Source of the DNA: Eledone cirrhosa
Lineage: Eukaryota
NCBI GenBank assembly: GCA_964016885.1
Contig: OZ024742.1
Coordinates: 175,274,001 to 175,338,000 of the forward strand
Reading direction: 5' to 3'
Length of the DNA stretch: 64,000 bases
The translations under genes and the position numbers were made by a program. Under the pieces are notes generated by a model, which saw only the letters and a list, made by a program, of their open reading frames with translations, made no database searches and was not told the DNA's origin. Position 1 is the first letter of the stretch, and the number at the start of each line of letters is the position of its first letter. Shown here piece by piece: positions 1 to 64,000 of the stretch.

Positions 1-3000
1 CATCCCAGGTCATCTTGGGTCTCTCCACTCCGCGGATTCCATCAACTTCTAGTGCTCTGCATATTTTATGCAGCTGTCATCCTTCATACGCATCACATGT
101 CCATACCAGCGCAACCGCCTCTCCTGCACACAGCATTTGATTCCTCTTATGCTCAGTCTCTCTCTCAATTCATTTATGCGTTGTCGTTCACGTATATTAC
201 TGTTACACATCCATCAGAGCATGCAGGCTTCGTTTCTCTCTAATCTACGTAAGTCTTCCACCTTCAGCGCCCAGGTCTCACTTCCATGCAACATTGCTGT
301 TCGGATACACGCATCATACAGTCTGCCTTTCATTCTGAGGGAGAAGCCTTTTGCAGCTAGCAGTGGTAGTAGTTCCCTAAACTTCTTCCATCCCGTTCTT
401 ACCCTAGTTATTCTACTTACCGAACACCCACCTCCACTACTAATTCGGTCACCTAGGTAGCAGAAGCTGTTTACTGTTTCTACAGAGCCCTCCCAGAGAT
501 TGGTGGTACTTGTTTCCTGTGGCTGTTTGGTGCTTGCTGTCCCAGCACAGCTGCTACATGTGAAGCCTACAATCTTAGTTAAGCTTCCTGAGATCCCGCT
601 ACATCTCTTGTATACCCATTGTTTGCATTTGGGGCAGAGAATGGAGTTCCTACCTACACCTTTCCTACATACTGAGCAAGGCCATTTCCCTGAGGGGATC
701 TGGGTTCTGTTTTCTCATCTTCTTACAAGGACCTTAGTCTTTGTCATGTTGACTTTGAGACCTTTTCTTTCTAGTCCCTGCTTCCAAGTTTGGAATTTAT
801 TCTCTAGTTCTAACATAGATTCAGCTATGAGTGCGAGGTCATCAGCATACAGGAGTTCCCATGGGCATCCGGTCTTAAACTCCTCCGTTATTGCCTGCAG
901 GACTATGATGAATAAGAGGGGGCTAAGAACAGAGCCCTGGTGGACCCCAACCTGTACGCTAAATTCCTCGCTATACTCATTGCTAATCCTAACTTTGCTG
1001 AGTGCTCCCCTATACATGGCTTGTACCGCTTTCACAAGCCATTCATCTACTCCTAGTTTTCTAAGAGCCCACCAGATTACAGCACGTGGAACTCTGTCAA
1101 AGGCTTTCTCAAGGTCGACAAATGCCAAGTAGAGTGGCTTACTTTTAGCTAGGTACTTTTCCTGTAATTGCCTCACAAGGAAGAGGGCACCAGTGGTACC
1201 TCTTCCTGGTACAAACCCAAATTGCATCTCGTCTATTTTCACCCGGTCCCTAATCAACTGTGCTATAACTCTTTCTGTTACTTTCATGACCTGGTCCATC
1301 AATTTTATACCTCTATAGTTTCCTCTATCTAGTGCATTGCCTTTACCTTTGTAGCAGTTGACAATGATGCTACTGCACCAATCTTTTGGTATGACACCTT
1401 CTAGTATTACCTGGTTAACAATACGTGTGGTTATAGTGTGACCTACAGACCCAGATGCCTTCAGCATCTCGGCAGCTATACCCGATGGACCGGTTGCCTT
1501 CCCCATCTTCATATCTTTGATTGCCTTACTTACTACGTTGCTGCTGACTTGTACTGCTGGCCCCTCTATAGGATCTAGTTGGGGTAGGGTCTCTTCTTCC
1601 CATGCATTCTCCTCATTTAGTAATCTATCATAATGACTCTTCCATGCATCTTTCTTCTCAGCACTTGTGAGGGCAAGCTCACCTTTATCATTCCGGATAC
1701 ACTTCTCTCCAATGACATCACAACTATCTCTGACACACTGCCTCGCAATCTTGAATACCTCCTGTTTCTGGTCCTCACGTTGCAAAACATGCTTGAATTT
1801 TCTATCCTCTGCTTCCCTCCTAGCTAAGTATACTTGTCGCCTAGCTTCCCTCTTGGTCTCTATGTAATGTACCCTGCTCCACCCGTTTTTCCATTCTTTC
1901 CATGCCTGTCTCTTGGCTTTAACTGCTTCATCTACCTTATTGTTCCACCACCAAGTCACACTCCTCCTGCTTGAGGTCTTACTCCAGCCACATACCTCAT
2001 CCGTCGCTTCTAGTAAATTATTTTTTAGGAACTCCCAGTTCTCTTCCTTAAATGTCTCTATATGTTCTTCTTTACTGTCGTAGGCGTTGAGTAAAATATC
2101 TTTAAATCTGTTACTGGTTGAGGGGACTTTCAGCTTCCAGATCTTTCTTCTCCAGGTTGGCCTCTGTTTTCAGGTTGATCTAGTTCTGACCGTGAGGTTG
2201 CTGACAACTAAGCTATGTTGGGATGTAAATTCCTCACTAGGGAAGGCTTTTGTGTTTACGACCGTCCATCTGTCACGTCCTCTGATGAGGATAAAATCTA
2301 TCTGACTGGAGTGCTCCCCTGATCTATAGCTGATCAGGTGGTTGTCGGGTTTCTTAAAGTTTGTGTTACATATCGACATGTCATTGGCGTCGCAGAATTC
2401 TAGAAGTCTGAATCCTTCCTCATTTCTTGTGCCAACCCCATGGCCTCCATGTACTCTATTGAAACCATCGCAGTGTTTACCTACATGTCCGTTAAAATCT
2501 CCTGCGATGATTAGGAAGTCATTGTCGTCTGTTAGAGCAGTAGTGTGCATTAAGGACTCGTAAAACATAACCTTAAGTTCGTCTGGCAGCCCCGATTGGG
2601 GTGCGTAAGCTGATATTATGGTTGTAATTGTTTTATTCAGGACTAGTCTGAGTTTAATGATTCTTGCATTTACCCTGTACACTGAGATTACTTTATCTAC
2701 CCACTTGTCAGCTAGTAGTATACCTACACCACCCATCCCATCATCATTTCCCACCCAGAAAAATTTGTAGCACCGACTTTTTCCTACCAGGACTCTGGCA
2801 GACTCTCCTCTCCATTTAGTCTCTTGCACACAGCATACATCAATTTCCTTTCGCTCTAGCATTTCTACGATTTCTCCTGCTCTTCCTTTCATTGAGCCTA
2901 CATTGATGGTACCAACTCGGAGTTTTGGGCATTTGTCGACACTCGTAGGGAAAAGTCTCGGGGTTGGCGCTTCACATGAATGCTTGGTAGCTCACAGATT

Positions 3001-3003
3001 CAT
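1..3003 (-). pseudogene. Disrupted APE-RT-PHD ORF of RTE subfamily 1
   Basis: Single frame from ATG at 3003 with TGA stops at 2992-2994, 2170-2172, 715-717 and ~214-216; colinear with ORF 58837..62124. Confidence 0.9.
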
Positions 3004-3264
3004 ATTTCATCTATTGATTCAGAGTTGCTCAAATTTATTCTCAGCTCATCCATCCATAACGGTGGGAAAATTGAGGGCTAGAAGAACAGTGGTGGTGGGA
3101 TAATGGCAGGGTGTGTTGGGCTGTGACAGGGGAGGAGAAAGTTAGTTAGGTAGTAGTAGTAGTAGTAGTAGCAGTAGCAGCAGTAGAAATGGCATGCTGA
3201 GGTTTGATTGGTCGAATAGGCTAGGGTGGGTGGGAGGAAAATTGTGAGGTGGGCACTGAGGGTC

Positions 3265-3691
3265 GCCGTCAAGGCTAACAGACTTAAATAACCGATAGAT
3301 TAGAATACCGCATGGTAAATATCCGAAATAATACAGCAAAAACAGTAATAATATTAAAAATAATAGCGTCATAAGAGCTAAGATACCTTCGAAAATTTGT
3401 ATGAATGGGTGGCTGGAACGAATCCAAATCAACTCTAGTGATCCATTTTAGCAGATAAGGATAAAGTGTCTCATCTCTTCAATAGCTTCAAGATGAGTGA
3501 GGTGGAATGGGCGAAAGGGAGGTTATGGGTGGCTTAGAGATAGATAGAGATAGGGTAGCCGTCAAGGCTAACAAACTTAAATGACCGATAGATTACAATA
3601 CCGCGTGGTAAATATCTAAAATAATACAGCAAAAACAACAATAATATTAATAATAATAGCGTCATAAGAGCTAAGATACCTTCGAATATTT
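3265..3691 (-). repeat. 5' tandem monomer of RTE subfamily 1 (293-bp unit plus partial second unit)
   Basis: gccgtcaaggctaac...gctaagataccttcgaa occurs at 3265 and again at 3558. Confidence 0.9.
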
Positions 3692-5639: not shown

Positions 5640-7197
5640 CTCAATAACTTAACACCCAGCTATAAAGCTAAGACCAAATAAAGAGTAAGCCAGCATCTTA
5701 ACCTGATAGCTATTGAGCAAGGATCATCTATCTAGGATCAGTACCTTAACCTCACAGCTATAAAGCTAGGATCATGCAACCTAGTACCTTAACCTCACAA
5801 CTATAGAGCTAGGATTATGTAAGTAGTAACCTAACATCTTATCCTCACAGATATAGGGCTAGCATCATTTAATTAGTAATCCAGTATCTTCACCTTAGCC
5901 ATAGAGCTAGCATCTGGTCAAAAGTAAACCAAAACCTTAACTTCACACCTATAGAGCTTAGATCATGTCAATAATAACCCAAAACGTTGACCTCACAGTT
6001 ACAGAGCTGGGACCATGTAATTAGAAACCCAGTATTTTAACTTTATAATTATAGAGCTAAAATTATGTGAGTAGGAACCCAAAATGTCACTGATATGGAG
6101 CTGGGATCATGGAATCAGTAACCTAAAAACTTAACCACACAGCTAGAGCTAAGATTATGTAACAAGTAACCCAGTACCTTAACCTCACAGCCTTCTACGT
6201 TCTGTCCACCGGGTCTGTGGGGAGGCCACCATTATAATTGACTGACTTGTCATTTTATCAGTCACTTAACAAATGTTCTTACATAGTCTTGAACTTCTCA
6301 GTATTAGCCACTGAAACACTTGTTAATTTCACTGTATTCCTGTTACCTCACAGCTATAGATCATGTAACAAGTAACCCAGTGCCTTAACCATACAGCTAG
6401 AGCTAAGATCATGTAAATAATAACCTGGTACCCTAACTTCAGAGTTATAGAGCTAGGATCATGTAAATAGTAACCCAGTATCTTAACCTCAGAGTTATAG
6501 AGCTAGGATCACGTAAATAGTAACTCAATGTCTTATCGTCACAGTTATAGAGCTAGGATCATGTAAATAGTAACCCAGTATCTTAACCTCACAGTTATAG
6601 AGCTAAGATCACGTAAATAGTAACTCAGTACTTTCACCATACGGGCATAGAGCTAGGATCTGGTCAATAGTAACCCAAGACCTTAACTTCATAGCTATAG
6701 AGCTTGATTATGTCAATAGTAACCCAACATGTTAACCTCACAGTTACAGAGCTGCGACCATGTGAATAGGAACCCAACACATCACAGATATGGAGCTGAC
6801 ATCATGGATTCAGTAACATAACAGCTTAACCTTTCAGTTTTAGAGCTAGGATCATTTATTTAACAACCTGGTACTTTAACCTCACAGCTACAGAGCTAGG
6901 ATCATGTAACTAGTAACCTTAACTCTAACCTCACAACTATAGAGCTAACATCATATAAATAGTAACCCAACATCTTAACATCACAGCTATAGAGCCAGGA
7001 TTATGACAATATTAACCCAGTACATTAACCTCACATCTTTAGAGCAAGGAACATATAATTATTCACCAAGTATCTTAACCTCACAGCTATAGAGTTTTGA
7101 CCTTTTAATTACTAGCCTATTTTATTAACTTCACAGCTATAGAGCTAGGATCATGTATTTAGTAACCCAGTATCTTAATTTCACAGCTATGGAGCTA
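5640..7197. repeat. 50-bp minisatellite array, interrupted by an insertion
   Basis: Unit aacctcacagctatagagctaggatcatgtaaatagtaacccagtatctt; agcta(g/a)gatc recurs at 6451, 6501, 6551, 6601, 6651. Confidence 0.95.
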
Positions 7198-7589
7198 CTG
7201 TTTTTGGCTTTAGCTTTAATTAGTGAGTGAGAATTTATTTAATTTAATGGTATCTTAGATAATTCCATCAGCTAATTACTTTATTTTGACACCAGGGTGA
7301 GGATGTGGAATGATATTTTAGCTGCTGACTGCTACTGCAGGTATTGTTTGCCCACCACAAGCCATTAAGCCGATTAGATCTGAATATCAATTGACATAAT
7401 CAAATTTCAACAAATACTAATCATATTGGTTTACTTATTCAACATTATATAAGATTTGATAAACAGCTAGAGGAACCATACTAATGCACTTCTTGCCAGA
7501 ATATCTCATACAAAATATGTTCTGCATTATTGAAATGGGGAGAGGTCATTAGTTTTACATATTGATTGTTTTCTTAGTAAGTTGATATC

Positions 7590-8030
7590 TAGGAATATAG
7601 AATCGCTGTAAAATTCTAGTACTGGTGCCACAATAATATGCACCTCCTATATCCTGTAAAGTGGTAATGCAGCTGCCATGGTAAAATCCACCCAGTACAC
7701 TCTGTAAAGTGGTACTATTGATACCACAATAAAAAGCACCTAGTACACTCTGTAAAGTGGTATTTATAGTGCCATGATAAAATGCTTGCAGTTCACTTTG
7801 TAAAGTGGTAGTGGTGGTGTCAAAATAAAATGCCTCCAATACATTCTGCATATTGGTAGTGTTAGTGTAAAGTGGTTGAATTTAGAATAATCATTCAGCT
7901 GTAAAAATCATACCAAAATATGGAACTTATGAACAAGATGTTTTTCTTTCATTAGTCTCGTCTGAAATTGTGATCACTAATCTAACTCAAGCTGGCATGG
8001 AAAGTAGACATAAAAAATGATGATGATGAT
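7590..8030 (+). mobile_element. RTE-3'UTR-derived element with expanded ~48-bp repeat and (GAT)n tail
   Basis: aaaagcacccagtacactctgtaaagtgg-type unit at ~48-bp spacing, ending gctggcatggaaagtagacataaaaaatgatgatgat. Confidence 0.7.
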
Positions 8031-14544: not shown

Positions 14545-14890
14545 ATAATGTATTATCACACTTCAGTGTGTCAGTAATATTCTCAAGTGTGTCACTCATA
14601 AATTCTCAGTGTGTCATAACACTGAACTATGTTACTGATAATCTCTAGGTCTGTTATGACACTTTACTATGTCATTTATAATCTCTAGGTCTCTTGTGAC
14701 ACTTTACTTTGTCACTGATAATATCTAGGTGTAACATAAAACATTACTAGTTCACTGATAATCTCTAGATGTACCATAACACATTATTGTGTCACTCATA
14801 ATCTCAAGGTGCGTTGTAACACTTTACTATGTCAACAAAAATATCTAGGGGTAACATAACATTTTACTCTATTACATATAATCTACATGT
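14545..14890. repeat. 40-bp minisatellite
   Basis: at(c/a)tct(a)g motif at 14641, 14681, 14721, 14761, 14801, 14841. Confidence 0.9.
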
Positions 14891-25763: not shown

Positions 25764-26804
25764 ATAGTTTTTTTCTATGCAAAGAATTCAAAGGTACAAA
25801 GAATTGTTTTGATGATTGAAAAAAAAATATATATATATATATATAATAAATTACTAAAAATAAACTAGAATAGACTTAACTACAAAAGTCTCCAATTTTC
25901 AAAATCTATTCATATGAAATCATATATAAATTTGATGAAACACTGTTTGAATGGAATCTATATATAAATATAAAATTTGATTTATTGATGTTGATGATGA
26001 TGTTCTACGATATATTTACTCATCTAATTACTACAGCAGATTTATTTGGTGTTAGTTTCGTAATATAAAGCAGATATTTTTTCCTTTTCAACAATGATAG
26101 TATGCTTTTGTTTACTCATTTGAGGCAGGAAAACAATTTGGATATATTTGTATGCATGGGTGAGAGTTGAAGATTAGATGGAAGGTAAGAGGAGAGAGGA
26201 ATCACTGTAGATATACACAATACAAATAAAATGCTACTATGATTGGACAATAGAAGATAAGAATTTTTTTCTTCAAATAAATATACATCTCATAGTATAA
26301 TCATTGGTAATGACAGATATTGAATAACAGAAACATCATAAAAGATAGAATTTATATAAAATGAGGATTATTTTAAAATAAAAGAAGCAATTTCAGTTAT
26401 AAACAATACAAAATTATAGTCTTTATATAATAATTTCACAAAGCCAAAAGATAGCATGAAGATTTTATCGATGTAGAAGAAAAAAACACACCCCTTCCGT
26501 AGGTATTGAAATAATATTATGTTTTTATTACATATAAAAGCCGTATATGTTTTAAATGTTTGTATTATACCACTACTATTGTGACATGAATTTTCTGTCT
26601 AAAGTTTGCTGTTTTATTAACACAGTCTCTTTGAAGATGTTAAATAAATGTATTGCCGAACAATGAAATTAATTTTTGATAATATGAATGTTATTCCAGA
26701 ATATAGTAACTCAATTAGAATATTGTCTGGATGACAAATGGTGTTTCTTCTTTGGAAATAGTGTTACAACAGTTTTGTTTTTAGCTCAAATCAGTCAAGA
26801 GCTG

Positions 26805-27215
26805 GTGCTATGATAAAATTTACCTAGCCTACTGTGTAAAATGATATTGCTGATGCCACAATAAAATATACCCAACCTACTCTATAAAGTGGTAGTGCTG
26901 GTGCCATAGTAAAATACACCCAGTACCCTCTGTAAAGATGAAATGCTAGTGCTATGGTACAATACACCCAGCCTAATCTGTAAAGTGGTAATGCTGATGC
27001 TATGATAAAATGCACCTGCAAGATGGTAGTGCTGGTGTCACAATAAATGCACCCAATGCATGCTGTAAATTGCTTCTGTAGCCATAGAAACCATGCCAAA
27101 ATGGAATGTATGAAATATACATGGTCATCTGATCTGTCTAATCTCTGAATGAGACAACCCATCTACCCTATGCTAGCATGGAATATATATGTAAAATGGT
27201 AGTGAGGATGATGAT
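26805..27215 (+). mobile_element. RTE-3'UTR-derived element with expanded ~48-bp repeat
   Basis: Same unit as 7590-7880, about 6 copies, ending atgctagcatgg...gatgat. Confidence 0.7.
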
Positions 27216-31495: not shown

Positions 31496-31537
31496 AATCA
31501 GGCTGATGGGCTGTACCAGTAATTCAAAGAGGCAGAT

Positions 31538-32840
31538 ATCATCATCATCATCATCATCATCATCGTTTAACGTCCGTGTTCCACGCTTGCATGGGTTTGG
31601 ACGGGGGTTTTCCCACTTGAGGCAAGAGTGATTGTCTTGCTCGCATAGGACTGTCTGGCAGGTTTTCTACAGTTGGATGCCCTTCCTAACACCAACCACA
31701 TTTACAGTGTGGGTCTGGGAGGTTTTTACCGTGTTGCCTACACGGCCACATTACAGCGTGGACTGTGTGTTTTTTGTCGTGACACCTACACGATCTCATT
31801 TGTTTCGGCCTGGATCGTGTGGCACCAACATAACTTTACATAGAAGGGGGCGGTGTGGATGGGGTGGGGGTTGTGGGACGGGGGTGTATTTTGTTAGAGA
31901 TGCCTACTGACTGTAGTAGGTTTTACTTTGTATTTAGGTAAGGCGGGTCTTCTCTATTACTGAGTACCGCCAAAGGTCTCGGTCCAGTGACATTGTCTTG
32001 GTGAGGTGTAAGTGTGTGAGGTCGGAGTTTATCAGCTCGTCCCAGGTTTTTCTGGGTCTGCCTATTCCGTGGCTACCGTCTATCTTTATTGCCCTGCACT
32101 TTGTTATACAGCTATCGTCCTTCATGCGCATCACGTGACCATACCAACGTAGCCTTCTCTCTAGTAAACAACATCTGATCCCTCTTATTTCTAATTTTTT
32201 CCTTAGATCGTTTATGCTTTGTCGTTCACGTATATTACTATTACACATCCAGCGGAGCATGCAAGCTTCGTTTCTCTCTAGTCTGCGTATATCCTCTGCA
32301 CACAATGCCCAGGTCTCACTGCCATGCAACATTGTTGTTCGTATGCAGGCATCGTACAACCTGCCTTTCATTTTTAGGGAGAACCCTTTAGCGGCTAATA
32401 GTGGTATAAGCTCTCTGAACTTTTTCCACCCAGTTCTGACTCTAGCTACTGTACTTTCAGAGCACCCTCCCCCACTGCTGATTTTGTCACCCAGGTAACG
32501 GAAGCTGTCCACTATTTCTATAGAACCCTCTGCGCAGTTGAAAGAGGTAGTATTTTGTGGGCACTTGCTGCTACTTATTGCCCCAGAACACCGGCCACAT
32601 GTAAAATCTATGTTCTTAGTTAGCTTACCTGTGATCCCACTACATCTTTTATGAACCCAAACTTTGCATTTGGGACACAAAATGGAATTTCTACCTAGGC
32701 CTTTCCCACACCCTTCTCATGGCCACTTCCCGGAGGAGACCGCCGCCTTATTTTCTTTCTTACAAACTAGAACTTTAGTCTTAGCCAGGTTAATTTTAAG
32801 GCCTTTTGATTCTAGCCCGTGCTTCCATGTTTGGAATTTC
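31538..32840 (-). mobile_element. 5'-truncated young copy of RTE subfamily 2
   Basis: Nearly identical to 58482-59755; ORF 31934..32680; (GAT)n tail; candidate TSD (c)agatat at 31533-31539 and 32840-32846. Confidence 0.95.
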
Positions 32841-38026: not shown

Positions 38027-38571
38027 ATTTCTACAATAGGTGTTCCAGTTGTTTGATCAACATACCACCTTGCTCATGAAATTAATGTGTAAGTGGTTGA
38101 GCATCCCACAAGACATATGTACCGTTAATGTAATTCTCAGGGATATTTAGCCTGGTGCAATGGGTGGCAAGTACAAGTACAGTCAGTCCCTCCAATGGGC
38201 TTCCACACAGTTACTGACTATGCAATTTCACTCATATGACAAGGGTTGAATTGTGGCTATGGTAAATGACACTTGCCCGGGACGTAATAGTTGCAATATG
38301 AAGAAGACATTAAACATTCAGGCATGCTATGCCAACTGAAAATCTACCACTCAAGTAAGCAATGCCAAAATTTGAACACAATGCAAAGAGCTAAATGAAA
38401 TAACACAAAACATTTTTTCCTACACTTTAATACTTCTGATAATTTGCCATTTATTTACTAAATATCCCCTAATATCAGTAATACTAATAATTGTTTCTAC
38501 ATTTGACACAAGGACAACAATTACCCAATACATTACTGGTACTTTATTTTATGGACGCCATAAGGATGTTA

Positions 38572-38960
38572 CAATGAAGTTACATCTGATACCCACTATG
38601 TCACACTGAAGTTAAATCTATCTATCCACTATGTCACACTGAAGCTACACCAATCTATCCACCACATTATACTGAAGTTACATCTATATATCCACCATGT
38701 CACACTGAAGTTAACTCTATATATCCACCATGTCACACTGAAGTTGAATTTATCTATTTATCCATCATGTTACACTGAAGCTACATCTATCTATCCACCA
38801 GGGAAGTAACATTCACATTTCCACTATACTGTTACTATTAATGTTACAGTTATATTTCCACCATGTTACAGTGATGTTACACACAGTTTCCCTGTGTTAC
38901 ATTGATGCTACATCTATGCATTAGTGTTACATTCAAGTAACATCTATATGTCCACCAACA
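38572..38960. repeat. ~32-bp degenerate minisatellite
   Basis: Unit tgtcacactgaagttacatctatctatccacca. Confidence 0.85.
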
Positions 38961-43543: not shown

Positions 43544-43808
43544 TGTTAGGAAGGGCATCCAGCTGTAGAAAACCCGCCAGACAGTCCACGCTGTAATGTG
43601 GCCGTGTAGGCAACACGGTAAAAACCTCCCAGCCCCACACTGTAAATGTGGTTGGTGTTAGGAAGGGCATCCAACTGTAGAAAACCCGCCAGACAGTCCT
43701 ATGCGAGCAAGACAACCACTCTTGCCTCAAGTGGGAAAACCCCCGTCCAAACCCATGCAAGCGTGGAACACGGACGCTAAACCTGATGATGATGATGATG
43801 ATGATGAT
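43541..43808 (+). mobile_element. 3'UTR-only young copy of RTE subfamily 2
   Basis: Near-identical to the reverse complement of 58482-58705; 43541-43587 duplicates 43653-43699; preceded by (TA)n. Confidence 0.9.
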
Positions 43809-43811
43809 AGG

Positions 43812-52379: not shown

Positions 52380-53700
52380 TAAACTCTAAAGACATCTGAG
52401 ATGTGGTCAAACAGAATATGTAGAAAAGGAATAAGTAGACATTCCATAGATGTACCCAATTTAAACTATTGGCAAACAAGAGGTATAAAGGTATTACAGG
52501 TAGAGATGGACAAAGAAGAAAGATTGTGTAACAGTTGCACAATAAACAGTAAGAGCACCTGTAAAATAAAATTACTTCAAATGCTCAAAAATCTCTATGG
52601 AAGTAGTTGATAGCTTTTAATACCTTGGTTACTTAATTATTTGTGGAGATTGAGTGCTCTGAAAGCATAGTAGCCAGAGTAAAAATGGAGTGGAAAGTTC
52701 AGATAGGTTTTACCTCAAAATAAAAAGATTCCAATGAATGAGTGAGCAACCACATGGTCACATGATTTGCTAAATATAGCAGACAAATCTCATTTTAAAT
52801 AAAGTACACATTGGATAATGTCCTAAATATTCTACAAAAATAGGATGGTCTGCTTAATCAGAGCAGATCTTGTACTAAACAACAACACAGAGATTTTAGC
52901 CTCGAATAAAGGACACATTGTATTAATATGCAAGGTTTCATGGTAGCAAAATATGGACATTTAAAGAAGTTTGGTGAAGGATTAAGAGAAATAAGGTGAG
53001 CATCCACAGCTGGATATGTATCATTAATGTACACAAAGAATGAAGTATAAATAATATGAGAGAAAATCTAAGCACAAGAACAATCATAAGAGCTACTAAA
53101 GGCCATGAAAACCCATGCCAATGAGGAAAGCAGATGCAAAACACAATGAAGGACAGCATGTTTATAGCTTGAACTGATTACAATTTGGGGGGACAGTATT
53201 GGATCATGCAGTGGTAGTGGACCAAATATTTAGAAAACCTTAATAAAAACAAGTGACATACGTAGATCTTATTACATCACATCAGGGAAGCATATTCACT
53301 TGCCAAGTTGGCTAGATTAGAATGTTTCTAATATATATATAAAGAAATGAAGCCTCCATGCTTTGCTCGATGTGAAATAGCAATATACGTGAACAGCAAA
53401 GTATAAATATGTACTGCGTGAGAAATTACGCATAAGAGGGATCAGTTGTTACATGCAGGAGAGGAGTTTGTGTTGGTATGGACATGTGATGGGTATGTAG
53501 AATGACAGCTGTATAAAATGGTGCAGAGCAGTCAAAGTTGATGGTAACTGTGGAGTGAGCAGGATTAGGAAGACTTGGAATGAGGTAATGAAAGCTGACC
53601 TTGCACAATTACATATCTCAAAGGCAATGACACAGGACCACGACCTCTTGTGCTATGCAGTATTACAGAAGACCTGCCCGTTATTATACTCAGGCTGATC
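52380..53700 (+). mobile_element. Several old degraded RTE fragments
   Basis: atatgtagaaaaggaataagtagacattcc (CRKG..R.SI), ttggttacttaatt, and tggtatggacatgtgatg (WYGHVM). Confidence 0.55.
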
Positions 53701-53724
53701 TTATATCTAGTATATATATATAGT

Positions 53725-54588
53725 GTTGATAAGTAGCAAAGAGGAGAAAACTCTGATTCCATCAGAGAAATGGCCATGTTCAATGTTAGTATAAATTCTG
53801 TAAATTGTACACAATGCAGATCTTGGGTACACAAGAGATGTAGTGGGATAGCAAGCAAGCTAACAGGTAGGGAAACCTATATATGCAGTAGATGTACAGA
53901 GAAATTTGACAGTAGAAGTTGCAGTGGTAGACACATTTTTCAAATGTGGGTAGGACCTCTAGAGGTGGTTGATAGCTTCCGATACCTAGGTGATCAGATT
54001 AGTAAGGGTGGAGGGTACTCTGAGGCCATAGTATCCAGAATAAGGACAGGTTGGAAGAAATTTAGGGAGCTGCTTCCTCTGTTGACAAAGAAGGGTTTCT
54101 CCCTACGAACGAAAGGCTGGTTATATGATGCCTGTGAGAGATGTGCGATGCTGCATGGTAGTGAGACATGGGCAGCAACTGTGGAAGATATGCGACGGCT
54201 GGAAAGAAATGAAGTAAGCATGCTCCGTTGGATGTGCAATGTCAATGTGCATGAACGACCAAGCATAGCTGAGTTTGGAGAGTAACTATGTATAAGAGGG
54301 ATAGGCTTAGTGTGCAGGAGAGAAGACTGCATTGGTATGGACATGTGCTGCGCATGGAGGATGACCGCTGGGTAAAGAAGTGCCAAGAAATCCCAGTAGA
54401 AGGAAGACACAGTTGAGGAAGACCATGAAAAACATGGGTGGAGGTGGTGAGAGCAGACCTCAGATCGCTGAAGCTCACGGAGGAGATGACAAAGGACCGT
54501 GACGAATGTAGAGATGCCGTGCTTCATAAGAGCTGTCCCACCCTTCGAAGCAGGGAAAAGCGTAACATGATGATGATGATGATGATGA
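53725..54588 (+). mobile_element. 5'-truncated RTE subfamily 3 (finger, C-terminus, short 3'UTR, (GAT)n)
   Basis: ORF 53770..54285: CTQCRSWVHKRCSG...CSRC, FRYLG, HGSETW. Confidence 0.9.
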
Positions 54589-55814
54589 TATATATTATGT
54601 TGGTACCACAAAACATCCAGCCCACACTGTAAAATGTTTGTGTTGGTATCACGACAAAAAGCACCCAACACACATTGTAAATGTTGTTGGCATTAGGAAC
54701 GGTATCCAGCCATAGAGAAACAGTCCTATGTGAGCGAGACATAGTCATCCAGTCCAACTTGCCTCTAAATGGGACAGACCTGTCTAACCCATGCTAGCGT
54801 GGAAGATAGACATTAAATAATGATGATGACACATACATATATACATATATGCATGTGTGTATGTGTATAAATCTATATAATTGTTTCTACTTTTGGCAAA
54901 TAATTTTCAACTAGCAATAACCACGCCTTAGTAAATTTCTAACTGAAGGCCAATTCCATTTTGACTGCCTTCTTCTGTCAGGATTTGTGCCTGACAGTGT
55001 CAGCAATGGTGGAACTAATGGAAATATACTTTCCTTGGTCTGATCTGATGATCCACTCATTTCCTTTGCTTTTAAATTGAACTCTAAATTCATCCATATT
55101 GTCCATATAAACTAGGTAGCTATGCTAATAAGATGTTTGTCTAATCTAAACATGTTATTGAATAGAAAAGAAAAAGAGATCAATAATGTGATGGGTTCAT
55201 TTCAAGTATTTAGGCATAGCTGGAAGGATTTCAACTATAAAGAAAACTTCATGCTGTTAATCTGTAATGGAATTGAAATGCAATCGAAGATAATTTTACA
55301 GAGCAGTGGGGAACATCATCTATTCCTTCCTTTATGATTTCACTTTGGTGCAAATGCATTAAATATTCAAAGGCTCTGTTATAAGTTCTCACTATCGAGA
55401 CTTTGAACTTCATTTTTATATCAGAGCATTTAACATTAAATGCTGCTTAAAGGGTATGAAATAAAATGAGGTAAACTTCACAAGTGATATAATGTTAAAA
55501 TATGATGTGCATCCAAATTTAAATAATAAGGAAATATTTCATTATAAATTCCCCACAATTTGTGGAAAGATGATTTATTTCATAAAGACATGCATACAGC
55601 TTCGGTATCGATTTTAACAAACTGGTATAAATGAAATGGCAAAATAATTAAGAAATGGTTCAGAGGAAATTTAAGGCTATTTCATAAAATTAGCTTATTT
55701 TCTTCATTACTGTATATGAGGAATGCCAGTTCTGATAAAAGGGATAGAAGACAGGATTCAGCTTGCACTATTCACTGATTAGTGAATGTCATTAAATATC
55801 TATCCATGAAGAAA

Positions 55815-56035: not shown

Positions 56036-57072
56036 TCATCATCATCATCATCATCATCACCGTTTTACATCCGTTCTTCCACGCTAGCATGGGTTAGATG
56101 GGTTGTCCTGTTGTGGGCAGTGTCTGGTCGGCGGACCATGCCTTGCTCACACAGGAACTGATTTGGCTTGATTTCTACAGCTGGATGCCCTTCCTAACAC
56201 CAACCTCATTTACAGTGGGTGCTGGGTGCTTTTTCGTGGTGCCTACACGTCCACTTTACAGTATGGGCTGGGTGCTTTTTTGCCGTGGCACCTCCACGAC
56301 CACCTTGCGGTGGGGGTGGGGGGGGGGCATATTGTCTATAAGCTTCAGCTTGTACCCATGGGAGGTCGGGTACTTTGTATTACTGTGTGACGCCAGAGGT
56401 CACGGTCATGTGTCATCGCCTTTGAGAGGTGTAATTGGGTAAGGTCGGCTTTTATCACCTCATCCCAGGTCATCTTGGGTCTCCCCACTCCGCGGTTTCC
56501 ATCAACTTTTAGTACTCTGCACCTTTTTATACAGCTGTCATCCTTCATACGCATCACATGTCCATACCAGCGCAACCACCTCTCCTGCACACAGCATTTG
56601 ATTCCTCTTATGCTCAGTCTCTCTCTCAATTCATTTATGCTTTGTCGTTCACGTATATTACTATAACACACCCATCGGAGCATGCAGGCTTTGTTTCTTT
56701 CTAATCTACGTAAGTCTTCCACCTTCAGCGCCCAGGTCTCACTACCATGCAACATTGCTGTTCGGATACACACATCATACAGTCTGCCTTTCATTTTGAG
56801 GGAGAAGCCTTTTGCAGCTAGCAGTGGTAGTAGTTCCCTAAACTTCTTCCATCCCGTTCTTACCCTAGTTATTGTACTTTCTGAACACCCACCTCCGCTG
56901 CTAATTCGGTCACCTAGGTAGCAGAAGCTGTCTACTGTTTCTACAGAGCCCTCCCAGAAATTGCTGGTACTTGCTTCTTGTGGCTGTTTGCTGCTTGCTG
57001 TCCCAGCACAGCTGCTGCATGTGAAGCCTACATTCTTAATTAAGCTTCCTGAGATCCTGCTACATCTCTTAT
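56036..57072 (-). mobile_element. 5'-truncated copy of RTE subfamily 1 with complete 3'UTR
   Basis: 56461-57070 is nearly identical to 1-610; (GAT)n tail. Confidence 0.95.
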
Positions 57073-57074
57073 AG

Positions 57075-58355: not shown

Positions 58356-58836
58356 GACATAATTAAATACTAAATTAACTATCTTGCACTAAATTGAGCA
58401 CTCTTTTACTTTTTCTTTATTCCTATCCACAGACATTTTTGTTGTATATACATATATAAAGGAATAAACAATAAATGATATATCATCATCATCATCATCA
58501 TCAACGTTTAACGTCCGTGTTCCACGCTTGCATGGGTTTGGGCGGGGGTAGTCCCACTTGAGGCAAGAGTGATTGTCTTGCTCGCATAGGACTGTCTGGC
58601 AGGTTTTCTACAGTTGGATGCCCTTCCTAACACCAACCACATTTACAGTGTGGGTCTGGGAGGTTTTTACCGTGTTGCCTACACGGCCACATTACAGCGT
58701 GGACTGTGTGTTTTTTTGTCGTGACACCTACACGATCTCATTTGTTTCGGCCTGGATGGCGCGGCACCAACATAACTTTACATAGAACGGGGTGGTGTGG
58801 ATGGGGTGGGGGTGGCGGCGGGAGGGGTGTATTTTG

Positions 58837-61800
58837 TTAGAGATGCCTACTGGCAAGGCGGGTCTTCTCTGTTACTGAGTACCGCCAAAGGTCACGGTCC
58901 AGTGACATTGTCTTGGAGAGGTGTAAGTGTGTGAGGTCGGAGTTTATCAGCTCATCCCATGTTTTTCTAGGTCTGCCTATTCCGTGGCTACCGTCTATCT
59001 TTATTGCCCTGCACTTTGTAATACAGCTATCGACTTTCATGCGCATCACGTGTCCATACCAACGCAGCCTTCTCTCGAGTAAACAACATCTGATCCCTCT
59101 TATCTCTAATTTTTTCCTTAGTTCGTTTATGCTTTGCCGTTCACGTATATTACTGTTACACATCCAGCGGAGCATGCAAGCTTCGTTCCTCTCTAGTCTG
59201 CGTATATCCTCTGCACACAATGCCCAGGTCTCACTACCATGCAACATTGCTGTTCGTATGCAGGCATCGTACAACCTGCCTTTCATTTTTAGGGAGAACC
59301 CTTTAGCAGCTAATAGTGGTATAAGCTCTCTGAACTTTTTCCAACCAGTTCTGACTCTAGCTACAGTACTTTCAGAGCACCCTCCCCCACTGCTGATTTT
59401 ATCGCCCAGGTAACGGAAGCTGTCCACTATTTCTATAAACCCCTCTGCGCAATTGAAAGAGCTAGTATTTTGTGGGCACTTGCTGCTACTTATTGCACCA
59501 GAACACCGGCCACATGTAAAGTCTATGTTCTTAGTTAGCTTACCTGTGATCCCACTACATCTTTTATGCACCCATACTTTGCATTTAGGACATAAGATGG
59601 AGTTTCTACCTACGCCTTTCCTACATACCGAGCACGACCATTTCCCAGAAGGGACCGCCGCCTTGTTTTCTTTCCTACAAACTAGAACTTTGGTCTTAGC
59701 CAGGTTAATTTTAAGTCCTTTTGACTCTAGGCCGTGCTTCCATGTTTGGAATTTCTTCTCTAGCTCGGCCATTGATTCCGCTATGAGTGTCAGGTCGTCT
59801 GCGTATAGGAGTTCCCATGGGCAGCCTGTCTTGAACTCCTCTGTTATAGCCTGAAGGGCAATAATAAATAGTAGGGGGCTGAGAACAGAGCCCTGATGGA
59901 CGCCAACTTTTACGCTAAACTCTTCACTATATTCGTTGTTAATTCTAACCTTGCTGACTGTTTCTTTATACATGGCTTGTATAGCCCTCACAAGCCATTC
60001 GTCAACGCCTAGTTTTCTAAGAGCCCACCAGATAATGGAGCGGGGGACTCTGTCGAAGGCTTTCTCCAGGTCGACAAAAGCTAAGTAGAGGGGTTTACCT
60101 TTAGCTAGGTACTTCTCCTGTAGTTGTCGTACTATGAAAAGAGCGTCTGTGGTGCTTTTGCCTGACACAAACCCGAACTGCATTTCATCTAGATCAATTC
60201 TCTCTCTGATTAGTTGCGCTATTACTTTTTCCGTGACCTTCATGACCTGGTCGATTAATTTAATGCCTCTATAGTTACTCCTATCTAGGGCGTCTCCTTT
60301 ACCCTTATAACAGTTAACGATGATGCTGCTATGCCAGTCCTTCGGAACAACCCCATTCTGTACGACTTGGTTAACTATGCGGGTGACCATGGTGTGTCCC
60401 ACCGTGCCAGATGCCTTCAGCATCTCAGCAACTATTTCCGAAGGCCCAGCCGCCTTACCAGTCTTCATATCCTTGATTGCCTTACTTATTATACTCCCCT
60501 CGACTAACACTGCTGGTCCCTCTATCGGGTCGATATGGGGGAGACTGTCTTTCTCCCATTTATTCTCCTCATTTAGTAGCCTTTCATAGTGACACTTCCA
60601 AGCTACCTTCTTATCAGTGTCGGTGATGGCAAGTATGCCATCATCGTTAAGTACACACTTCTCCCCGACAATATCACGGTTTTCCTTGACGCATTGCCTG
60701 GCAATCCTGAACACCTCACGTTTTTGGTCATCGCGTTGTAGAACATGCTTGAACTTTCTTTCCTCAGCTTCCCTTCTTGCTAAGTACACTTCTCTCCTAG
60801 CTTCCCTCCTGGCCACTTGATAGTCTACTCTACTTCCCCCATCCCGCCATACTTTCCAAGCCTGCTTTTTGGCCTTAATTGACCCCTCCACCTTACTGTT
60901 CCACCACCATGTTACTCTCCTCCTGCCTACAGGCCTGCTCCAGCCACAGACTTCGTCTGTCGCCAACAGCAGGTTAGCTTTCAGAAATTTCCACTGTCCC
61001 TCTATATTGTCCGATTCTAGATGCTCTTCCTTACTGTCGAAAGCATCAAGTAATATGCTTTGAAATTTATTTCTGGCTGTGGGGTCTTTTAGTTTCCATA
61101 TTTTCCTCCTGAGGATAGTCCTCTTCTGCTGTCGGGTGCGTCTCGTCCTGACTATGAGGTCGCTAATTATCAGTCTATGTTGGGAGGTGCATTCTTCATG
61201 GGGGAGGGATTTAGTGTTTACAACAGACACTCTGTCACGTCTTCTGGTAAGGATATAATCTACCTGGCTTGTGTGTTCCCCGGATCTATAGGTAATCAGG
61301 TGATTGTCACGTTTTTTGAAGTTAGTGTTACAGATAGTTAGGTTATTTGCATCACAGTATTCCAGAATTCTGGAGCCTTCCTCATTTCTAGTACCAAACC
61401 CATAGCCTCCATGGATTTCGTCATAGCCGTCACAATGTTGTCCAACGTGACCATTTAGGTCGCCTGCAATAATTATATAGTCACTGTCAGATATTTGGGA
61501 GGTAGTTAGCAACAGTGTCTCATAGAATCTGTCTTTTATAGTGCCGGGCAGTCCGGATTGGGGTGCGTACGCAGATATTACTGTCACCGTAGTTCTATTG
61601 AGGACAAGTCTTATTTTAATTATTCTGTCGTTCACTCTATTTACGTCTATTATCTTATCTGCCCACTTTTCTGCTACCATGATTCCTACTCCACCCAGCC
61701 CATCGTCGTTTCCCACCCAGAAAAGCTTATAACATCGTTTTTTACCCTCAATGAACCTAGCAGACCCACCCCTCCACCTGGTCTCTTGAATACAACAAAC

Positions 61801-62103
61801 ATCGACCTCCTTACGTTCAAGCATTTCTACAACCTCGTTAGCGCGACCCTTTAGGGTGCCTACATTTATGGTACCAACTCTGAAGTTTTGGGTTGCGTTT
61901 GGAGGGTGGGGGTGGTGGGGGGCGGGAGGAGATAGGGTTATGTTAGCCATCCGCGGACGAAACAAAGAGGAGTGCTCGCATTCTCGTCCACGAGGTGAAT
62001 TTGACTTTAACTTTGACATTTTCGCTCTGGGCGTCCAGATTTTTCTCTCCCTTCCACTCTCCAAGGATTCCGCAGTCCGTCCGTCCATCCATCCATCCAT
62101 CAT
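58837..62103 (-). CDS. RTE LINE polyprotein: APE endonuclease, reverse transcriptase, PHD-type finger, C-terminal domain
   Basis: First in-frame ATG at 62103 (track start 62124 is TTG). GTINVG, IQETRW, SAYAPQ, GDLNGH, VDYIL, SQH; QFGF, DLEKAFD, QGSVLSP, YADD (59794-59805); C4HC3 at 59503-59634; FRYLG, HGSETW, GRPRKTW. Confidence 0.96.
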   Translation of the reverse strand: MMDGWMDGRTAESLESGRERKIWTPRAKMSKLKSNSPRGRECEHSSLFRPRMANITLSPPAPHHPHPPNATQNFRVGTINVGTLKGRANEVVEMLERKEVDVCCIQETRWRGGSARFIEGKKRCYKLFWVGNDDGLGGVGIMVAEKWADKIIDVNRVNDRIIKIRLVLNRTTVTVISAYAPQSGLPGTIKDRFYETLLLTTSQISDSDYIIIAGDLNGHVGQHCDGYDEIHGGYGFGTRNEEGSRILEYCDANNLTICNTNFKKRDNHLITYRSGEHTSQVDYILTRRRDRVSVVNTKSLPHEECTSQHRLIISDLIVRTRRTRQQKRTILRRKIWKLKDPTARNKFQSILLDAFDSKEEHLESDNIEGQWKFLKANLLLATDEVCGWSRPVGRRRVTWWWNSKVEGSIKAKKQAWKVWRDGGSRVDYQVARREARREVYLARREAEERKFKHVLQRDDQKREVFRIARQCVKENRDIVGEKCVLNDDGILAITDTDKKVAWKCHYERLLNEENKWEKDSLPHIDPIEGPAVLVEGSIISKAIKDMKTGKAAGPSEIVAEMLKASGTVGHTMVTRIVNQVVQNGVVPKDWHSSIIVNCYKGKGDALDRSNYRGIKLIDQVMKVTEKVIAQLIRERIDLDEMQFGFVSGKSTTDALFIVRQLQEKYLAKGKPLYLAFVDLEKAFDRVPRSIIWWALRKLGVDEWLVRAIQAMYKETVSKVRINNEYSEEFSVKVGVHQGSVLSPLLFIIALQAITEEFKTGCPWELLYADDLTLIAESMAELEKKFQTWKHGLESKGLKINLAKTKVLVCRKENKAAVPSGKWSCSVCRKGVGRNSILCPKCKVWVHKRCSGITGKLTKNIDFTCGRCSGAISSSKCPQNTSSFNCAEGFIEIVDSFRYLGDKISSGGGCSESTVARVRTGWKKFRELIPLLAAKGFSLKMKGRLYDACIRTAMLHGSETWALCAEDIRRLERNEACMLRWMCNSNIRERQSINELRKKLEIRGIRCCLLERRLRWYGHVMRMKVDSCITKCRAIKIDGSHGIGRPRKTWDELINSDLTHLHLSKTMSLDRDLWRYSVTEKTRLASRHL

Positions 62104-62134
62104 ATATCGAAGGCAACCGGGCAAGCGATAGTAT

Positions 62135-62290
62135 AGGCCTCTGGCTTATGATTTGGTCCGCGTAATAATAATAATGGTGATGCGTGGGGGTGGGGGTGGG
62201 TGGCTCTGGCTTATAATAATGGTGGTGATGCGGGGGGGGGCTCTGGCTTATGATTGGTCCACGTATTAAGTATGGTGGCGTGTGGGGGCG
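62135..62290. repeat. Three short degenerate repeats in the 5'UTR
   Basis: ctctggcttat...ggtg(at)gcg + G-run recurs at ~62138, 62204 and 62241. Confidence 0.75.
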
Positions 62291-62319
62291 GGAGGGAGGG
62301 GTGTGGGGTAGCTAGCTGG

Positions 62320-64000
62320 AAGGTTATGAATGTTTAACAAGCGATTTAACAAAAAGCAAAACTGCAAGATTTGTTCTGTTCAATACGACAAAAACACCGT
62401 ATTTAAACCTTAAATAGATAACAAAAAAATACAGATTTCGGATTTTGCGAGATTGGATGTTTGTTTGGACTGTGTACGGAATTGAGCGTGGAAATGGAGA
62501 GAAGGATTGTACTTTACGGTTTACATGAGTCCATCATAGAAATAATTGAAGCAAAGTGGATAAACATGAAGGAAAACTTATCTTATATATATATGTGTGT
62601 GTGTGTGTGTGTAGCTAAGCGAGAGATAGAGGGGAAGAAAGAGAGGGGGGGGGGGGGGAGATAGTGGCTGACCGCAGCCCCCTCGTGGAGAAGCAGGAGG
62701 GTGAAGGGGTGGATCGGCTTTTTGACTTTCAAGTAGCATACTATATATATTTAAAGTAATTTATAAGTAGAATGTGGAGGATTTTGTTTTTTTTTGTTTG
62801 AGAATACGATAGAATTAAGGAATTGGACGAATACGATAGAATTAAGATAGAAGGTTATGAATGTTTAACAAGCGATTTAACAAAAAGCAAAACTGCAAGA
62901 TTTGTTCTGTTCAATACGACAAAAACACCGTATTTAAACCTTAAATAGATAACAAAAAAATACAGATTTCGGATTTTGCGAGATTGGATGTTTGTTTGGA
63001 CTGTGTACGGAATTGAGCGTGGAAATGGAGAGAAGGATTGTACTTTACGGTTTACATGAGTCCATCATAGAAATAATTGAAGCAAAGTGGATAAACATGA
63101 AGGAAAACTTATCTTATATATATATGTGTGTGTGTGTGTGTGTAGCTAAGCGAGAGATAGAGGGGAAGAAAGAGAGGGGGGGGGGGGGAGATAGTGGCTG
63201 ACCGCAGCCCCCTCGTGGAGAAGCAGGAGGGTGAAGGGGTGGATCGGCTTTTTGACTTTCAAGTAGCATACTATATATATTTAAAGTAATTTATAAGTAG
63301 AATGTGGAGGATTTTGTTTTTTTTTGTTTGAGAATACGATAGAATTAAGGAATTGGACGAATACGATAGAATTAAGATAGAAGGTTATGAATGTTTAACA
63401 AGCGATTTAACAAAAAGCAAAACTGCAAGATTTGTTCTGTTCAATACGACAAAAACACCGTATTTAAACCTTAAATAGATAACAAAAAAATACAGATTTC
63501 GGATTTTGCGAGATTGGATGTTTGTTTGGACTGTGTACGGAATTGAGCGTGGAAATGGAGAGAAGGATTGTACTTTACGGTTTACATGAGTCCATCATAG
63601 AAATAATTGAAGCAAAGTGGATAAACATGAAGGAAAACTTATCTTATATATATATGTGTGTGTGTGTGTGTGTAGCTAAGCGAGAGATAGAGGGGAAGAA
63701 AGAGAGGGGGGGGGGGGGGAGATAGTGGCTGACCGCAGCCCCCTCGTGGAGAAGCAGGAGGGTGAAGGGGTGGATCGGCTTTTTGACTTTCAAGTAGCAT
63801 ACTATATATATTTAAAGTAATTTATAAGTAGAATGTGGAGGATTTTGTTTTTTTTTGTTTGAGAATACGATAGAATTAAGGAATTGGACGAATACGATAG
63901 AATTAAGATAGAAGGTTATGAATGTTTAACAAGCGATTTAACAAAAAGCAAAACTGCAAGATTTGTTCTGTTCAATACGACAAAAACACCGTATTTAAAC
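62320..64000. repeat. Tandem array of near-identical 530-531-bp units (3 complete plus partial)
   Basis: aaggttatgaatgtttaacaagcg starts at 62320, 62851, 63381 and 63912; visible differences are limited to homopolymer length. Confidence 0.97.

Follow-up and report, generated by a model that had tools for sequence, protein, structure and literature searches.

The analysed stretch of DNA (the window) comprises 64,000 nucleotides of the Eledone cirrhosa genome, and corresponds to positions 175,274,001-175,338,000 of contig C3 (OZ024742.1; G000:C3) in a genome assembly of 3.0 Gb. It contains, on the minus strand, an RTE-like LINE whose 3' UTR (58482..58836) ends with a (GAT)n tail (58482-58502), for which a matching end is found in sister copies. 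Upstream lies a single intact ORF (58837..61950) that encodes 1037 aa from its first ATG (61950), with an APE-type endonuclease, a reverse transcriptase (RT) and a PHD finger; no match for RNase H was obtained in this ORF, which also holds one genome-unique change. The ORF is followed by a tether of 369 bp (61951..62319, minus strand; 54% GC), which contains a CCAAT-box-like 9-mer (62251..62259, minus strand), 69 bp from the unit border, which we take to be an NF-Y/CCAAT box, and, immediately before that border, a G-rich box with a GC-box/G-quadruplex-like pattern (62284..62308, plus strand).

Beyond the tether, a tandem array of 5' units begins on the minus strand with unit 1 (62320..62850; 531 bp), unit 2 (62851..63380; 530 bp), unit 3 (63381..63911; 531 bp) and an 89-bp piece from the start of unit 4 (63912..64000). 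The array runs on for 10,115 bp beyond the window and ends at C3:175,348,115, with a total of 22 full units plus 133 bp (11,796 bp); unit 1 bears an array-private base at 62775. Pairwise comparison of the three full units in the window reveals no substitution and a single 1-bp indel, located within a G run. An earlier reading made from the sequence only had placed at least three near-identical units of 530-531 bp directly upstream of the intact ORF; the units are as described, but the tether lies between them and the ORF. The homogenisation that it reported was confirmed, in that the microsatellite and the internal duplication are equal in all window units. Unit 1 has 37% GC and a CpG observed/expected ratio of 1.03, compared with 0.37 for the window, so that the units are not CpG-depleted.

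A sister element lies at the start of the window, with an RTE-like body (1..3258, minus strand) that has a broken ORF and a tether of its own and is 74% identical over 2.9 kb. Its 5' units (3259..3691, minus strand) comprise one 293-bp unit and a 140-bp partial copy (3259-3398 and 3552-3691 are 92% identical), and a CCAAT-like motif (3205-3213, minus strand) is located 54 bp from the unit border. The sister layout with an unrelated-looking 293-bp unit, also part of the sequence-only reading, thus holds insofar as this unit cannot be aligned to the 531-bp unit (alignment score 29; shuffles 28.3 +/- 4.1), but the window shows only about 1.5 sister units.

The window is rich in this LINE group; additional copies from the two families that lack their 5' part, together with short fragments of 3' ends, are found at 31535-32840, 43578-43809, 53343-54829 and 56038-57073. 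Furthermore, there are degenerate tandem repeats with a period of 33-50 bp (5778-7867, 14590-14884, 26801-27016 and 38566-38800), which presumably resemble those in cephalopod zinc-finger or repeat-rich exons.

One ORF with APE endonuclease and RT and no ORF1, as found here, is described as an RTE feature (PMC13295347), as is a microsatellite-like 3' end (PMC6007223), represented here by (GAT)n. At least 120 homologues, among the matches listed, are 49-58% identical and carry no clade names, for which reason the element is labelled 'RTE-like'. A short target-site duplication (TSD; 7-15 bp) was not readable outside microsatellites for the window element and 62 loci, several of which have unique flanks, and many copies lie in (TA)n, where none can be read. 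The TSD that had been anticipated beyond position 64000 was likewise not found, and a comparison of 2 kb with 4 kb of flank yielded only TA-repeat matches.

Linkage of the units to the element body

A 41-mer taken from the unit is matched exactly at 950 places in the genome, and its reversed control at none. The first 100 matches listed represent 58 loci on contig 1, all of which were examined. At each of these 58 loci, the 5' part of the same RTE-like body joins unit 1 in register, and copy number varies, as the sequence-only reading had expected of a genome search; in four of them, the 3' part of the body is absent from the stretch examined. The distance between body and unit 1 is 50 bp or less in 57 of the 58 loci, and the remaining one is split by an expanded 27-bp junction repeat: at this locus (L080; C1:306,949,311-306,950,200), a duplication of 27 bp at the tether/unit border has become a minisatellite of approximately 0.9 kb between the body and the first full unit. 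A free satellite that merely lies beside a LINE was also considered and was rejected, since the unit was never found apart from a body in the 58 listed contig-1 loci; the 42-kb sister array described below is attached to a body as well. The array layout is almost certainly real and borne by the element.

Scaled from the 950 matches, approximately 400 loci in the genome bear units, in agreement with 449 matches of the tether/unit junction, a count in which some loci are represented repeatedly. The unit region extends to a median of 590 bp past the tether, and it is shorter than 1.2 kb in 52 of the 58 contig-1 loci and 1.7-5.6 kb long in six; in one locus it meets an assembly gap. Two or more unit cores are present in 20 of the 58 loci, and the longest unit region among them is 5.6 kb. 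The length of the unit depends on the locus (503-772 bp), and short variants of 198 and 247 bp also occur.

A 26-mer near the start of the ORF has 2,930 matches, far above the number of tether/unit junctions. An unbiased sample was drawn from these, comprising 20 of the 91 listed loci that were not already known to carry the unit. Of these copies, 15 reach the unit region and have related, diverged units (a second unit is visible in seven of the 15, with periods of 55 to ~570 bp), and five stop before the tether motif. Older subfamilies thus carry diverged, homologous units, and the layout predates the present unit. The divergence of the units is 1.4 to 4.2 times that of fourfold-degenerate ORF sites at 24 of 24 loci, which are not independent of each other, and short blocks inside the unit are kept across seven aligned subfamily units.

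The sequence-only reading had proposed that lineages exchange or capture unrelated monomer promoters, for which the 531-bp and 293-bp units, unalignable despite bodies that are 74% identical, could be an indication; mammalian L1 is reported to have replaced its own 5' UTR repeatedly (PMC5381506). The evidence across subfamilies does not sustain the term 'exchangeable': subfamilies whose ORFs are 88-99% identical have homologous units, and the change consists of fast divergence and re-cutting. All units in the larger family are homologous and drift gradually, and at the observed drift they would be unalignable by the time that ORF identity has fallen to 74%, with no swap at all. Moreover, no body of one family with the unit of the other was found among 82 + 20 + 19 loci. 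Exchange is therefore a quite improbable explanation; as judged from the alignments, the relationship of the subfamily units is one of descent with fast change.

Of the 73 aligned full-length bodies, 53 retain an open frame of 1030 aa or more, and the family is thus very young. Several copies (L045, L046, L167, L168 and L169) lie within one minisatellite with a period of 18 bp, and many others within (TA)n; this insertion inside the minisatellite and (TA)n suggests a target preference.

Probable growth of long arrays

Long arrays were sampled in the 24 closest copies including that of the window, which were picked as best matches and not at random. Five of these 24 copies have between 22 and at least 28 full units, and the four relatives of the window array have 23, 24, 26 and at least 28. 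In each of three arrays examined, every unit bears a private base, and all of its matches in the 3-Gb assembly (22, 25 and 28, respectively) lie in that one array. The five long arrays together show four variable columns in 63.5 kb (three of which sit at the edges of G runs), compared with ~16 expected from ORF-private changes (P = 3e-4), a value that would be weakened if such changes stem from unsampled source elements. Plain copying-through, at 0.8-1.3 ends per kb, would yield 0.03 or fewer arrays of 11.8 kb in 400 loci, and five were found; these end rates are rough, being exact 26-mer counts across subfamilies. Together, the private bases, the few variable columns and the rarity of copy-through indicate that each long array likely goes back to one unit, and that the long arrays were very probably amplified locally. 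The 22-unit array of the window, likely amplified from one unit and representing the rarer state, had been missed by the sequence-only reading.

An origin of the long arrays in misassembly of a short repeat would be in line with their near-identical units, with lengths that cluster at 12-14 kb, and with the fact that the arrays were read from an assembly; furthermore, among raw reads from two other samples, none of 73 in one and at most 1 of 65 in the other carries the private base of the window array. A locus-private base is, however, expected to be rare in other individuals, and each array has its own markers, with unit, G-run and microsatellite lengths that vary in blocks along the arrays. 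The sister array on C11 is heterogeneous, and head-to-tail joints are found in an independent run from another organism (X5). Such an artefact is therefore very improbable. Two other runs (X6 and X7) cover the ORF and leave the unique part of the unit uncovered, and X8 covers parts of the unit; reduced-representation reads and contigs cannot measure array length, and the absence in X6 and X7 is not evidence. All five long arrays are 12-14 kb long, one of them stops at a contig end and another locus stops at a gap, so that read length may have determined how long the arrays appear.

As to the time of amplification, the long arrays could have been made in one step at insertion, if the polymerase returned repeatedly to the tether border and copied a single unit over and over, with no unequal exchange later. 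The longest perfect arrays are found in the youngest copies (0-2 ORF-private changes), as expected under such a course of events; the arrays of two to six units in older copies have an internal divergence close to the age of the body. At L101, the outermost partial unit also bears the private base, and most new junctions re-enter the unit within ~12 bp or less of the tether border (L056 type, L071, L105, L106 and L050), as do three head-to-tail joints in X5. Some new junctions hold border bases that are absent from the junction of their own subfamily. Other junctions, however, re-enter ~35 bp inside the unit (L163/L168) or represent internal deletions (L092 and L173); the junction types were sorted by eye and are not all independent. 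Furthermore, some block patterns need duplication at the DNA level after mutation: L050 has blocks of four, six and four short units between full units, with variants in common at offset 7, 13 consecutive units at C2:146.76 Mb share a single microsatellite length, and C11 holds a higher-order array. Amplification wholly in one step is a possibility to which we give less than even weight.

The C11 array (C11:3,140,300-3,186,056; L136, L137, L141, L142, L150 and L151) consists of ~155 sister units in 42 kb and forms a higher-order satellite, in which the units have a mean divergence of 5.8% and their nearest neighbours are most often 12 or 23 units apart. It adjoins a full-length body with a broken ORF that is 95% identical to the sister copy in the window. 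In general, the sister family, as represented by 19 loci found with the 293-bp unit, has mostly one unit and a fragment.

An inversion with twin-priming geometry is present at the end of a 23-unit array (C2:146,752,694-146,753,651; L034 and L035). Its main arm ends at unit position 336, and the inverted arm starts from 345, is 610 bp long and crosses a unit junction, which indicates that at least two units were present on an RNA template. A 5' inversion of this geometry is a signature of L1 and is not known from RTE-like elements.

Possible promoter function and comparison with known elements

Promoter activity in the units is about as likely as not. A promoter role would be favoured by the position of the units, the layout kept in both families, the conserved blocks, the undepleted CpG and the precedent of mouse L1. 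This reading is partly weakened by 5' ends that are not clustered and by the location of the best-conserved promoter-like motif (CCAAT) in the tether. The positions of 52 of the 58 5' ends within the unit do not depart from a uniform distribution (KS test, p = 0.32); the other six, which fall in the first 55 bp, were excluded owing to locus selection. In mouse L1, by contrast, the ends are clustered at start sites. The rate of ends is 1.3 per kb in the units, 0.8 in the ORF and 0.4 in the tether (1.6 to 3x); it is thus only modestly raised in the units, and most ends look like ordinary truncation. The units are AT-rich and are not CpG islands.

Alternatively, the promoter core might be located in the tether (CCAAT and GC box), and the units would then act as a buffer or enhancer, or would have arisen neutrally through faulty copying of the 5' end, and would be kept by absorbing truncation. 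Besides the unclustered ends and the fast divergence of the units relative to fourfold sites at all 24 loci, this reading draws on the CCAAT-like 9-mer, which is common to the tethers of both families (80 of 82 loci, at 69 bp from the unit border, and, in the sister family, 14 of 18 loci, at 54 bp) though their units share nothing alignable, and which is present in 15 of 15 unbiased copies that reach the motif; the pattern of the G-rich box is found in 67 of 82 loci. However, an alignment of the 100 bp around the two family borders scores no higher than shuffles do (22; shuffles 21.8 +/- 4.0), so that the common 9-mer is only a lead, and short blocks inside the unit are conserved across seven subfamily units. 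The tether of mouse L1 is conserved as well, yet has weak activity (10.1101/2021.12.03.471143). We regard a promoter core in the tether as less likely than not.

Rfam searches of the unit and of the 5' end revealed no ribozyme or other structured RNA, with no match near the gathering score, though new variants could escape such a search. Similarly, no window there had a structure score below z = -2.1, and a hammerhead core was not found. A retrozyme-like element or a ribozyme-headed LINE, which had been considered as candidates, were therefore rejected. Ribozyme-headed LINEs (Perere-3 with twister variants, R2 with HDV-like ribozymes) represent another way in which a single-ORF LINE defines its 5' end, and have a fixed, self-cleaved 5' end (PMC8501958), in contrast to the scattered ends observed here.

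The layout appears to match the monomer-plus-tether 5' UTR of mouse and rat L1, at least in anatomy. Mouse L1Md (A, Gf and Tf; monomers of ~200 bp) and rat L1 (~650 bp) also have tandem units at the extreme 5' end and a tether of a few hundred bp (PMC5381506, PMC6454616, 10.1101/2021.12.03.471143), and in these sources, as here, the unit number is variable, the outermost unit is partial, the longest arrays are in the youngest copies and very long arrays are rare. Unlike mouse L1, the present element is of a different LINE type, with a single ORF and a (GAT)n tail, and its units are AT-rich with microsatellites and do not form CpG islands. The 5' ends are clustered in mouse A and T monomers and unclustered here, and an array of more than 20 units is homogeneous here, with one private base, whereas the mouse example of 50 monomers is described as heterogeneous, and 99% of mouse promoters have 10 or fewer monomers (PMC6454616). 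A typical copy has about one unit here, and three to four in young mouse L1. Tandem 5' units with a tether (58 of 58 loci), variable unit number and a partial outermost unit are thus L1-type monomer features of the element, and clustered 5' ends and a CpG island are lacking; for these two reasons, and because its promoter activity is putative, the unit was not filed as an L1-type monomer promoter.

The A-module of Dictyostelium TRE5-A is also tandemly repeated, and we know of no array growth of comparable scale in TRE5-A. This element differs from the present one in its type and in being targeted to tRNA genes; its 5' module is the plus-strand promoter of a non-LTR element (PMC4559204). Compared by description, the octopus element RTE-2_OV (PMC9115989) resembles the present one in its single ORF of ~1,100 aa with endonuclease, RT and zinc finger and in its microsatellite 3' end; its 5' UTR is ~600 nt long, and the word 'tandem' is absent from that paper. 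No RTE 5' monomer arrays were found in the literature searched, a search that did not extend to Repbase reports and subscription journals.

Proposed life cycle and significance

On balance, and with moderate confidence, we favour the reading that the 531-bp units are the repeated 5' end of a young RTE-like LINE family, that the 22-unit array has likely grown in place from one unit, and that the units would supply or protect an upstream promoter in the manner of mouse L1. In the corresponding life cycle, the 5' ends of copies would be scattered over the unit region, as was observed, and units would be present on the RNA template, as was observed once, in the twin-priming-type inversion. Reverse transcription would erode the array, so that most daughters keep about one unit. 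The private markers suggest that a copy which retains one unit and part of another may then expand again, in register, to tens of units, probably at insertion or soon after. Subsequently, block duplication, as observed in older copies, would lead to higher-order repeats, up to the LINE-attached satellite of 42 kb. Finally, regrown copies could hypothetically restart transcription in distal units and become the next sources.

As a more specific mechanism, RT might, during insertion, return again and again to one set position on the tether border and re-copy one unit up to ~30x, and the resulting perfect arrays of 12-14 kb would later mature into satellites. We consider this unlikely on present evidence; if true, the jump-back would be a direct mechanism for L1-type monomer growth and a programmed route from a LINE to satellite DNA.

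The matter bears on how a LINE retains a 5' promoter in the face of truncation. For mouse L1, the mechanism of monomer-array regrowth is stated to be unclear, with two models (PMC6454616). In the present genome, a LINE type unrelated to L1 is represented by hundreds of young loci, in which private bases mark the founding unit of each array and could let models of array growth be told apart. The long homogeneous arrays also explain the difficult assembly of full-length copies of such elements. Of note is an apparent 5' design resembling that of L1 in a LINE of another type, in which the loci trace a path towards satellite DNA, beginning with single units and reaching a satellite of 42 kb that is still attached to its LINE.
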